A stretch of 63,274 nucleotides of DNA, filler included, from Dirinaria sp. TL-2023a (GCA_051941275.1; 10 parts of 10 records of this genome joined end to end with filler, not necessarily neighbours in it); one strand, 5' to 3'. Shown: positions 4,017 through 6,371, counted from the first letter of the whole stretch. Numbers and translations: made by a program. The notes: generated from the sequence alone by a model not told the origin.

Positions 4017-4644
4017 ATGATCCAGCTCAAGGTAAGGCCATTTGAATCATCTACGACAGTTCAAACCCATCTAACCCATGGATTCCAGACGATGCTGAAT
4101 TGCATCGACAACTCCGGAGCCCTCATCGTCGAATGCGTAGCCAATCTTCGCATGAAGAGGCATGGCCGAGTCGGTACGACGACCTTCTTGGACTATACGA
4201 CTTTGACAAACGTTTGCTAATGAAGTAATCTAGGTGACCGCATTATTGTAGTCGTCCAGAAAGCTCGCCCCATCCACGACCACTTGCCGGGGAGGCGCAG
4301 CTCTGGAGGAGTCGCAGCAGCGAACATGGTCAGGCGAGGTGACATCAGGCATGCGGTTATTGTGCGGACGTGCAAGAAAACGCAGAGGGAAGATGGCAGC
4401 GTTGTGAAGTTCGATGACAATGCTTGCGTCCTCATTGGAAAGACCGGGGAGCCCCTGGGGACTAGGATCAACGGTCAGTACGCAGATTTGCTTCAGATCT
4501 AGTCACATGCGATATCGAGCTTGTTGTGGCATTTACATCGCCGTTGGAGTCCAAAAGCTAATCCAGGAATCAGGCGTTGTGGGAGGTGAGCTCCGAAATA
4601 AGCAGTGGTCCAAGATCCTTTCACTAGCACCAACGCATGTATAA
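4017..4644 (+). CDS. MRPL38: Mitochondrial ribosomal protein uL14m; exons 4017-4031, 4089-4173, 4234-4473, 4574-4644
   Basis: MIQLK|TMLNCIDNSGA...GDRIIVVVQKAR...AVIVRT...DGSVVKFDDNACVLI...PLGTRING|VVGGELR...KILSLAP is the L14 signature; canonical introns. Confidence 0.95.
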
Positions 4645-4816
4645 TATTTTCAAACATATCTTGGGGGTTCAGGTAAAGATGTAGTTGAATTATGTAATTT
4701 CAAGCCCTGTCAACGCCTCGTATATCCCTTGCAACTTGCGATTTAAGATCGCCACAGTCAAATACCAGGCCATCCACCAACTCCACGCTTTGGTCATCGG
4801 TGCAATTGAATGCACG

Positions 4817-5573
4817 CTATTTGAAGATGTTACCGCAACTGCAGCAGACGTAGAAGAGTCGCTGCGTATGTATTAGCAAAACCTCCTCGCCGCAAACGGG
4901 AAGTAGATGAGCATACCATTCCGGTCTCCGCCGACCGCTGCTGCGACTGGAAAAACACCGCTTCGGTCTCCTTGCAATGTGGGCACTGCTTATTCGACCT
5001 CGGCAGCTGTGATGAAAGGTGCATCAGCAAAAGGTTCATAGAACATTGTTTGTGACTCCCGTTCCAGCAACGGCTGCGCCAAGCCGTTTTTCACACCCTT
5101 GAAGCACCTGCTCCTCCTCCAAATCTCCCTCCTCCAAACCCCGCTCCTCCTCATCTTCGCTCTCTACATAGAACATGAAACCCTCAACGCTCATCTCATC
5201 ACAAAAGGAACAACGTATAGGCAGGTGACAAAGGGCACAAAACCCGGGGATACCGACCGTAGGATCTGAACCCACGTCCTGCGTGACACCCGCCGTTTCC
5301 CCTATACTGGTATCTAGATTGTTCCTGTAGACGCAGGACGAAGATGCTTTCTCGCTATACTGGCAGGTCGAGCAGGCAAACATGAGTTGGTGCGTTTGGC
5401 GGTCTTCTTTCGGGTAGAGCATATTGGAGCTGTCACACATTAGCGGGATGGATTCGTTAGGGCCAACAGTTGAAAAGCAAAGGGACTCACCATTCATTGC
5501 AGAACTTGAATTTGATCTGTTCTCGTGTTGGCTTGTCCAGGGCCTCGTTCATTTCAGGCGGTGAGGCAGACAT
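4817..5573 (-). CDS. RPB9: RNA polymerase II subunit Rpb9; exons 5573-5491, 5429-5258, 5006-4917, 4861-4817
   Basis: FKFCNEC|SNMLYPKED...CSTC...DVGSDPT|LPRSNKQCPHC..EAVFFQSQQRSAETGM|RLFYVCCSCGNIFK*: two Zn ribbons and the DPTLPR motif. Confidence 0.95.
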
Positions 5574-6255
5574 GGCCGTTTGTAAGGTTTAAGGTGATGA
5601 GAAGTATGTAGATGATGAGAAGAATGTTACGGGGATGATTCTTCCGAGATCCAAAGCTTTCGGTACTTAAGGTAAGCTTGCAGCTTTAATTTACGTTTGA
5701 TGAGTCACGTAGAGGTAGGTAAGGTATGATCCTTACCTTAGTAAGTGAGGTAAGATGGAGGAACGATGGGGAGAAACAAAGCTAAGGCAGCAGGTGCAGC
5801 TGTCCGCCTTACGCTAAGCTTTGGCGGCATTAGCGCGGGGCTCGATAGGTTCCTTCCGCAACGGCCACGATTGAAGATGCAGCCCGGCGTGGCACGAGGG
5901 AGGTGGGGACTTCGTATTTACTTCCTTGACTTTACAATCTGAAGGGCGGCGACCGAAAGCAGAGTCGGGTGTCCATAACAAACCCACTTGCAACACCTTC
6001 GAACACGAGTACGAGAAGATCCTTCCAAAGCCAAGAGCGCCAGACAGAAACCCCCCATAGAAAGGCGTGCATTACCTTAGGAATCCTCCCCTCTCCCATC
6101 TTGTGACACCACACCCTGCATCTACTTGCCCTTGGAGAACATCTCGCAATCCCGCTTTTTTTTTTTTTTGCGCCGCCAAGATACCGACAAACGCCGCAGC
6201 CTGGAACAGCTCTCATTGCTAAAGAAAAGTACAAAAGCAACCAATCTTCTTCGCC

Positions 6256-6271: not shown

Positions 6272-6371
6272 NNNNNNNNNNNNNNNNNNNNNNNNNNNNN
6301 NNNNNNNNNNNNNNNTTAATTAATTAANNNNNNNNNNNNNNNNNNNNNNNNNNNNNNNNNNNNNNNNNNNN
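6272..6371. other. Artificial contig spacer
   Basis: N44-TTAATTAATTAA-N44 (stops in all six frames). Confidence 0.99.

Follow-up and report, generated by a model that had tools for sequence, protein, structure and literature searches.

Does the second intron of RPB9, the gene for a small subunit of RNA polymerase II (Pol II), encode an alternative end for the very protein that it interrupts? The question arises in a stretch of 63,274 nucleotides, filler included, in which 10 parts of 10 records from the genome of Dirinaria sp. TL-2023a (GCA_051941275.1) are joined end to end; this whole stretch is referred to here as the window. Dirinaria is placed in Caliciales, Lecanoromycetes, by taxonomy look-up. 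On the minus strand of the window, RPB9 can be read from the sequence as four exons (Table 1), and the second of its three introns continues the Rpb9 reading frame for most of its length.

The canonical gene is well defined. Its spliced coding sequence translates into 129 amino acids. All 129 are identical in P0259, listed at NCBI as a hypothetical protein from a metagenome-assembled genome of Dirinaria sp. P0259 matches both PF02150 (E 2.4e-11) and PF01096 (E 2.8e-15), and the latter, the C-terminal TFIIS-type ribbon, was found in the canonical spliced product only. A single lichen-metagenome sample with 4 RNA runs supplied contigs that are about 95-99% similar to the window and that join 4861 to 4917, 5006 to 5258 and 5429 to 5491 exactly, confirming all three splice joints. 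Both the gene model and the canonical removal of intron 2 are thereby established.

Table 1 Features of RPB9 and of its second intron in the window (positions counted from the first letter of the window)
Feature	Position	Strand	Description and evidence
RPB9 exon 1	5491..5573	(-)	ATG at 5573-5571; first CxxC of the N-terminal zinc ribbon; joint 5491/5429 in RNA contigs
RPB9 intron 1	5430..5490	(-)	61 nt, GTGAGT..CAG; RNA contigs
RPB9 exon 2	5258..5429	(-)	Remaining N-ribbon and linker, ending ...GSDPT; PF02150 E 1.5e-6; RNA contigs
RPB9 intron 2	5007..5257	(-)	251 nt, GTCGGT..CAG; spliced out in the canonical mRNA; 73-codon in-frame extension 5257-5039
Donor GTCGGT	5252..5257	(-)	Doubles as codons Val-Gly
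Cys motif CALCHLPIRCSFC (CxxC-x5-CxxC)	5201..5239	(-)	Extension codons 7-19
Acidic tract	5111..5200	(-)	Codons 20-49; D/E at 15/30 residues
Extension stop TGA	5036..5038	(-)	29 nt before the acceptor; 10 nt upstream of CTGAT
CTGAT, candidate branch point	5023..5027	(-)	A at 5024, 17 nt before the acceptor; read from sequence
RPB9 exon 3	4917..5006	(-)	LPRSNKQCPHC..., first half of the TFIIS-type C-ribbon; RNA contigs, PF01096
RPB9 intron 3	4862..4916	(-)	55 nt, GTATGC..CAG; RNA contigs
RPB9 exon 4	4817..4861	(-)	Second CxxC of the C-ribbon; stop TAG at 4819-4817; RNA contigs, PF01096

Intron 2 begins in phase 0, directly after ...GSDPT, and then stays open for 73 codons in the Rpb9 frame, encoding the peptide VGIPGFCALCHLPIRCSFCDEMSVEGFMFYVESEDEEERGLEEGDLEEEQVLQGCEKRLGAAVAGTGVTNNVL. 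Its cysteines fall at residues 7, 10, 16 and 19 (CALC-HLPIR-CSFC), giving the spacing CxxC-x5-CxxC. A preliminary description of this DNA had pointed to an intron of 251 nt beside neighbours of 55 and 61 nt, to the non-optimal donor GTCGGT, to 73 open codons starting at the DPT|LPR boundary with CxxC-x5-CxxC and a Glu/Asp tract, and to a stop near the branch point. Every one of these elements is present, the last as a TGA just upstream of a branch-point-like CTGAT, which we take to fit the fungal branch-point consensus CTRAY. Within the Cys motif, the window has His at the position where 46 of 48 distinct relatives have Gly (CxxCG), and its nearest relatives have Gln at this otherwise near-invariant residue.

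By itself, an open frame of this length says little. The probability of at least 73 open codons is 0.030 under uniform codon use, a recalculation that agrees with the roughly 3% quoted earlier for uniform base use; it is 0.021 when the intron's own base composition is used, and shuffling gives 0.023 (mononucleotide) and 0.039 (dinucleotide). One antisense frame of intron 2 is also open, for 72 codons, for compositional reasons, and openness alone is weak evidence for that reason. It is conservation of sequence in other genomes, and not openness, that places this reading frame above chance.

Searches for other kinds of content gave little. A small RNA hosted by the intron (a snoRNA or similar) was considered and rejected: Rfam returned two chance-level matches for positions 4600-5800, both outside intron 2, and none inside it at E<=10, and the intron's RNA fold is no stabler than that of its shuffles (z-score +1.28; 183 of 200 shuffles fold at least as well). 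Neither blastn nor tblastn found a second copy of intron 2 within the window. For the 73-residue peptide, Pfam assigned no family (the best hit being only zf-C2H2_10, E 0.51) and gave no PF01096 match at E<=10, a protein atlas search yielded no usable match, and similarity to canonical Rpb9 was not significant (E 0.31). HMMER compared the peptide with 1.84 billion representatives and returned 4 matches, 3 of them the same RPB9 tail and the fourth a weak match to an acidic stretch of a 1266-residue protein. At the sensitivity of this sequence search, the peptide is without visible free-standing relatives.

Relatives of the tail are found instead at the same place in other RPB9 genes. A protein search with exon 2 plus the intron open reading frame (ORF) gave 626 matches at E<=0.001; among the 120 of these listed, 119 read DPT followed by V-[GSRC]-...C-x-x-C-G and an acidic tail, and P0032 is the single canonical spliced form. 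Such a query ranks tail-bearing proteins higher because it holds the tail itself. Our unbiased sample was a set of 80 metagenome loci chosen on exon 2 only: the first row of the alignment, used for confirmation, was exon 2 alone, and both patterns (TAGVTQDV and C[RS]TC..) lie in exon 2. The anchoring pattern placed 72 of these 80 loci, which reduce to 63 distinct ones; 2 of the 63 are without intron 2, leaving 61 distinct intron-bearing loci.

In this sample, CxxCG follows DPT in frame at 55 of 61 loci, as a full CxxC-x5/6-CxxC in 25, as CxxCG with a third Cys in 21 and as CxxCG only in 9. A degenerate CxxC occurs in 1 of the 61 and no motif in 5, one of the five being cut by a contig end. The 8 loci missed by the anchoring pattern were read separately and carry the motif in 8 of 8 cases. 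Across 48 distinct motif windows, the first two cysteines are present in all 48 and the Gly after the second in 46, the third Cys in 36 and the fourth in 17; loci of the Leotiomycete form stop at three Cys, and in some lineages CxxCG is all there is. For that reason a zinc site of four Cys cannot be a function shared by all. Of the Cys4 arrangement, only the CxxCG part comes near to being invariant.

The distribution of the motif is wide. A second protein search that included divergent forms reached 1156 proteins, and the 120 listed include many named Sordariomycetes. The acidic fraction of tails in relatives has a median of 0.30. Carriers include Lobaria, Xylographa, Gyalolechia and Pleopsidium (Lecanoromycetes), Sclerophora (Coniocybomycetes), Aspergillus terreus (Eurotiomycetes), Rhynchosporium and Hymenoscyphus (Leotiomycetes), and Colletotrichum, Fusarium, Trichoderma, Claviceps, Xylaria and others (Sordariomycetes). 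The preliminary description had named early stops, frameshifts and missing Cys conservation in orthologous introns as the outcome that would count against it. We ran this comparison and the finding withstood it: the open frame that it had expected to be conserved recurs, with CxxC(G), across Pezizomycotina classes.

The way in which these introns differ points to selection on the encoded protein. Across 24 loci, TGT and TGC are both used at each of the four Cys positions (17/7, 20/4, 15/9 and 10/14), and codon-position entropy is 1.30/1.08/1.62, with position 3 the most variable. Of 22 pairs, 18 have a tail dN/dS of 0.08-0.43 and 4 are saturated, with the proviso that alignment guided by the protein somewhat depresses dN where pairs contain gaps; for exon 2 these 22 pairs give 0-0.09. 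In 12 close pairs, with the two donor codons left out, we counted 102.5 differences at 394 synonymous sites and 110.5 at 1508 non-synonymous sites, a pN/pS of 0.28 (binomial P 2.8e-19, for pairs that may not be phylogenetically independent). Two of these 12 pairs, L045/L048 and L022/L028, go in the opposite direction, with 2 non-synonymous and 0 synonymous changes. Seven closest-pair comparisons with at least 15 differences gave pN/pS of 0.14-0.38.

This signal belongs to one frame. In 8 gap-free pairs, which may not be phylogenetically independent, pN/pS is 0.24 in the Rpb9 frame versus 1.27 and 0.91 in the other sense frames. The antisense frames of the same pairs give 1.27, 0.38 and 1.05, of which the 0.38 is an expected echo, because that frame shares its wobble positions with the Rpb9 frame. 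Antisense frames are often open in the related loci as well, because sense strands rich in GAG and GAA carry few antisense stops. These sequence comparisons show intron 2 to be under purifying selection in the Rpb9 frame in at least five Pezizomycotina classes, and the prediction of dN/dS below 1 across orthologues was borne out by the tail ratios and by a pN/pS of 0.24-0.28. As marks of coding selection on a putative retained-intron isoform, we found a phase 0 start, 73 open codons, a pN/pS of 0.28 and frame specificity.

The donor of intron 2 is GTNGGT in 48 of the 61 distinct related loci, and the second residue of the extension is G, S, R or C, that is, codon NGT. The extension thus opens with two codons (GTN NGT) that are set by the donor signal GTNNGT. 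Wherever the ORF is present, intron 2 is long, with a median of 202 nt (range 89-780, n=53). Within Lecanoromycete loci, 84-92% of the intron is taken up by the ORF, whose stop lies in or just before the branch-point region; read in this way, the Lecanoromycete intron 2 is essentially an ORF plus 3' splicing signals. Sordariomycete-type loci, where intron 1 is absent, have an intron 2 of 230-780 nt, with a spacer before the Cys motif and 14-360 nt of non-coding sequence after the stop.

Some lineages have lost the arrangement. In L023, L041/42 and L047/49 the ORF is gone, with stops after 6-19 codons; L012 combines a consensus GTGAGT donor with a degenerate motif; and L059, on a 116-kb genomic contig, is without introns 2 and 3. 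These losses mean that the variant is dispensable. A further locus, L031, is without intron 1 and keeps introns 2 and 3; the locus nearest to it is only 84% alike.

Translating through the intron retains one of the two Rpb9 domains. Exon 2 plus the intron matches PF02150 at E 1.5e-6 (28.4 bits against a cut-off of 25.2), and the full-length variant P0017 matches PF02150 at E 2.8e-10 and PF01096 not at all. Judged by the domain content of its predicted sequence, the variant is a product of the RPB9 gene and not a complete Rpb9. When a profile of the variant was compared with solved structures, its matches were confined to the N-ribbon and linker of Rpb9 chains in Pol II, and no tail of this kind occurs in any of the 13 PDB sequences that it matched. 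The profile sets the first CxxC opposite the first CxxC of the yeast Rpb9 C-ribbon, one residue out of register, so that the Cys knuckle would take over at the point where the C-ribbon usually begins.

AlphaFold2 models the N-ribbon with confidence (pLDDT 86-90). The knuckle reaches 68-74 in the window's own sequence and 69, with a short beta-hairpin, in P0017, and the tail is modelled as disordered (45-60); mean pLDDT is a moderate 62-63 in both models. The knuckle is minimal and would probably bind metal. The analogy that had been drawn with the acidic residues of A12.2 and C11 found no support, as the tail has no PF01096 match and is modelled as disordered.

In aggregate, we consider it probable that intron 2 is a selected, dual-use protein-coding intron that gives rise to an Rpb9 variant without the TFIIS-type ribbon. 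Removal of the intron at DPT|LPR produces the canonical 129-residue protein, with its N-ribbon, linker and TFIIS-type C-ribbon. A fraction of transcripts would keep the intron and be translated, in this genome into a variant of 158 residues, 85 from exons 1-2 and 73 from intron 2. Across the lineages, the new end would consist of the donor codons for Val and Gly/Ser/Arg/Cys, the near-invariant CxxCG, often extended to CxxC-x5-CxxC, and a variable D/E-rich tail, so that the knuckle and a disordered acidic tail would replace the C-ribbon while the N-ribbon and linker stay. In solved structures, it is the N-ribbon and linker that anchor Rpb9 to Pol II. Through them the variant may assemble into Pol II without the roles of the C-ribbon, and an acidic tail near the jaw and funnel could then create a second functional state of the enzyme.

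Transcripts bear on this proposal in several ways. The RNA contigs of all 4 runs carry the fully spliced form with no cover inside intron 2, as contigs that drop minor variants, and neither a transcript keeping the intron nor an intronically polyadenylated one was seen among these contigs of one sample. Such contigs are silent on a minor retained form. One ORF-called protein, P0112 (Logan, 1841-nt contig), has exon 1 joined to exon 2 with intron 2 kept; other ORF-called proteins of its group show intron 1, and P0112 is only a hint of a retained transcript. We rejected the joining of exons 1 and 2 in ORF-called proteins as transcript evidence because some genomic loci are simply without intron 1, which is absent from Sordariomycete-type and some Leotiomycete-type genomic loci (P0101, for example, comes from a 973-kb contig). 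The idea that an alternative C-terminus keeps the N-ribbon and drops the C-ribbon is thus partly supported: comparative selection speaks for it, and from that selection we infer translation, while the RNA contigs hold the spliced form only.

With intron 2 kept, the mRNA would have its stop codon about 119 nt ahead of the exon 3/exon 4 junction and, by the general rule, would be a plausible target of nonsense-mediated decay. This raises the alternative of regulated unproductive splicing, in which retention of a weakly defined intron tunes Rpb9 dosage, the mRNA that keeps it is degraded or goes untranslated, and the peptide has no function. The distance of the stop from the last exon junction would suit such a role, as would a non-consensus donor common to most of the loci (GTNGGT in 48 of 61), RNA contigs with the spliced form only, and the loss of the variant in some lineages. 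Dosage control needs no specific residues, yet CxxCG is kept while its Cys codons change synonymously, and the low pN/pS (0.24-0.28) is specific to the Rpb9 frame; nor did Rfam or the RNA fold, no stabler than shuffles, reveal a structured element. As a full explanation we therefore regard unproductive splicing as unlikely. Dosage control and a coding variant are mutually compatible, and decay may be an additional layer.

The near-alignment of the first CxxC with that of the yeast C-ribbon, one residue off, could be taken as the trace of an ancestral exon or of a partial duplicate of exon 3, now always spliced out and either decaying slowly or hitch-hiking on splice signals. We judge such a relic very unlikely. 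Purifying selection acts between close relatives in several lineages (pN/pS 0.14-0.38 in the seven comparisons), the frame is still open over distances at which dS is saturated, and the similarity of the peptide to canonical Rpb9 is not significant, even though there have been several independent losses and the second CxxC is degenerate in Leotiomycete-type loci.

A distal donor might instead join the ORF to exon 3, in which case a long Rpb9 would carry the knuckle and the acidic region between its N-ribbon and its C-ribbon. Two Colletotrichum models at NCBI, P0146 and P0149 (236-239 residues, with PF02150 and PF01096), do join ...FQLA to LPRSNKECPVC, and the sister model P0140 continues ...FQLAVSQ(stop), which fits a GTNAGY donor at that point. 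These Colletotrichum models are predictions, a comparable Fusarium model (P0196) leaves out the C-ribbon's first CxxC and seems mistaken, and no consistent in-phase site emerged among 21 loci checked. In the window, an in-frame long form is excluded by the sequence itself, as only 29 nt follow the stop and no phase-0 GTnnG leaves an intron of at least 45 nt. We give this route scarcely any credence as a general account. A chance open frame in a long, purine-rich intron, to which the window's own P of only 0.02-0.04, the 72-codon antisense frame and the want of a Pfam family or protein-atlas match might seem to point, is contradicted by the recurrence of the motif at this position in 55 of 61 distinct loci picked regardless of motif and by frame-specific selection, and is extremely improbable.

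The dual-use coding intron remains our preferred account, and a bolder version of it can be put forward tentatively, as a possibility that we would not yet favour. One RPB9 gene would supply two kinds of Pol II, with the weak GTNGGT donor setting the isoform ratio, so that splicing efficiency or elongation rate would feed back on the make-up of the polymerase. Start-site choice, fidelity, factor binding or DNA loading might be altered by an acidic tail close to the jaws or funnel. Both the variant Pol II and the autoregulatory switch suggested in the preliminary description are hypotheses. This layer of control would predate the split of Lecanoromycetes, Eurotiomycetes, Leotiomycetes and Sordariomycetes, and could have been overlooked since each gene model settles on a single form.

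Most work on Rpb9, a core subunit of Pol II, has been done in yeasts, where intron 2 is absent, and the C-ribbon of the protein is linked to the interplay with TFIIS and TFIIE and to fidelity. If the variant is made, a second kind of Pol II, so far unrecognised and without the domain tied to TFIIS/TFIIE interplay and fidelity, would exist in most filamentous ascomycetes, a group that takes in lichen fungi and industrial moulds as well as major pathogens of plants and humans. The intron itself offers a clean example of coding selection on an intron over what would be hundreds of millions of years. A dual use would also explain a conflict in annotation, in that public gene models disagree at RPB9: many deposited models give the intron-reading form, without PF01096, as the sole Rpb9, some fuse both forms, and one (P0143) is named after an unrelated enzyme. 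A literature search whose scope excluded most subscription journals found no description of a fungal RPB9 isoform, and the Rpb9 passages seen in one paper (PMC13451438) concern yeast transcription-coupled repair only. The question can be tested with existing genetics in Aspergillus, Neurospora, Fusarium or Trichoderma.

Among known systems, the closest is canonical Rpb9/POLR2I itself (PF02150 and PF01096; chain I of 1i3q, 5x4z, 3h0g and 5flm), with which the predicted variant shares the gene, the N-ribbon and the linker up to ...GSDPT. Where the canonical protein continues into a C-ribbon of roughly 40 residues, the variant would have a 13-residue Cys motif and an acidic tail. Rpa12.2 of Pol I, Rpc11 of Pol III and the TFIIS ribbons offer a second comparison, as paralogous small subunits with two zinc modules. 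Those proteins carry their acidic residues at the tip of a folded ribbon of the TFIIS type, whereas in the variant such residues lie in a low-complexity tail modelled as disordered, and there is no TFIIS-type ribbon.

Plants provide a precedent for several forms of the ninth subunit that give polymerases different properties. The plant forms are encoded by separate paralogous genes and have both ribbons; here, by contrast, one gene would give two forms by way of an intron, the second of them without the C-ribbon. That such forms serve Pol II, IV and V is reflected in the name of chain I of 7eu0, 'DNA-directed RNA polymerases II, IV and V subunit 9A'. With coding retained introns, or exitrons, RPB9 intron 2 has in common that it is phase 0, open, under coding selection and spliced out of the main mRNA. 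Exitrons sit inside an exon and preserve the downstream frame, whereas RPB9 intron 2 has its stop before the acceptor, so that retention would swap the C-terminus. Yeast rpb9 truncations without the C-terminal zinc domain, which are engineered laboratory alleles, resemble the variant in having the N-ribbon and linker without the C-ribbon; to this shared core the variant would add a CxxCG knuckle and an acidic tail.

Intron 2 of RPB9, which in the window is 251 nt long and carries the 73-codon in-frame extension, was present in nearly all RPB9 loci compared. Intron 1, however, was missing from Sordariomycete-type loci, one Lecanoromycete-like group and some Leotiomycete-type loci (metagenome loci L008-L011, L013, L022, L024, L028, L031 and L060-L080). 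Of RPB9’s three introns, the coding one is therefore the most stable in this comparison. Independent losses of the intron or its open reading frame took several forms. Locus L059, a 116-kb genomic contig, lacked introns 2 and 3, and L046 lay on a contig without any RPB9 intron, which may be a transcript. Early stops fell inside intron 2 in several loci (L023, L041/L042 and L047/L049), and L012 combined a degenerate Cys motif with a consensus GTGAGT donor.

In the window, RPB9 and a ribosomal protein L14-type gene are convergent, their 3′ ends facing each other with ~170 nt from stop to stop; an L14-type gene also adjoins RPB9 in the sequence of metagenome locus L031. Separately, the window’s nine regularly spaced pairs of N runs hold 792 N in total and look like masked or withheld stretches rather than assembly gaps.

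Features located in the window.
Feature	Position	Strand	Remark
Codon 11 of the intron ORF	5225-5227	-	His
Ribosomal protein L14-type gene	4224-4645	+	PF00238, E 1.5e-23
Paired 44-base N runs	6272-6315 and 6328-6371, plus eight more pairs		spacing ~6.3 kb

Public annotation of the RPB9 locus is mutually inconsistent among NCBI gene models (P0146, P0149, P0196 and P0143). Some models read intron 2 as the sole C-terminus, those of Colletotrichum fuse the intron ORF in frame to the C-ribbon (the TFIIS-type zinc ribbon of exons 3-4), and a Fusarium model leaves out that ribbon’s initial CxxC. A Hypoxylon entry for the protein is labelled ‘histone lysine methyltransferase Set9’.

Codon 11 of the intron ORF, His in the window and Gln in the nearest relatives (P0002 and P0003), encodes the Gly of the near-invariant CxxCG core in 46 of 48 distinct relatives; His/Gln is a change specific to this lineage, at the residue best conserved outside the cysteines. 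The ends of the ORF also vary. In four Teloschistales-type proteins (P0077, P0079, P0086 and P0112), it has no stop and enters exon 3 in a shifted frame, reading ...EPFA..SCRDRTS...KRGW; in these relatives the variant C-terminus would differ from that of the window. Xylariales/Apiospora-type tails (L060 and L061; P0129, P0143 and similar proteins) carry an extra conserved, non-acidic stretch of ~60 residues after the Cys4 motif, with the pattern ...DP.S...Y........P.F....M.....A......, pointing to a bigger extra domain in this group.
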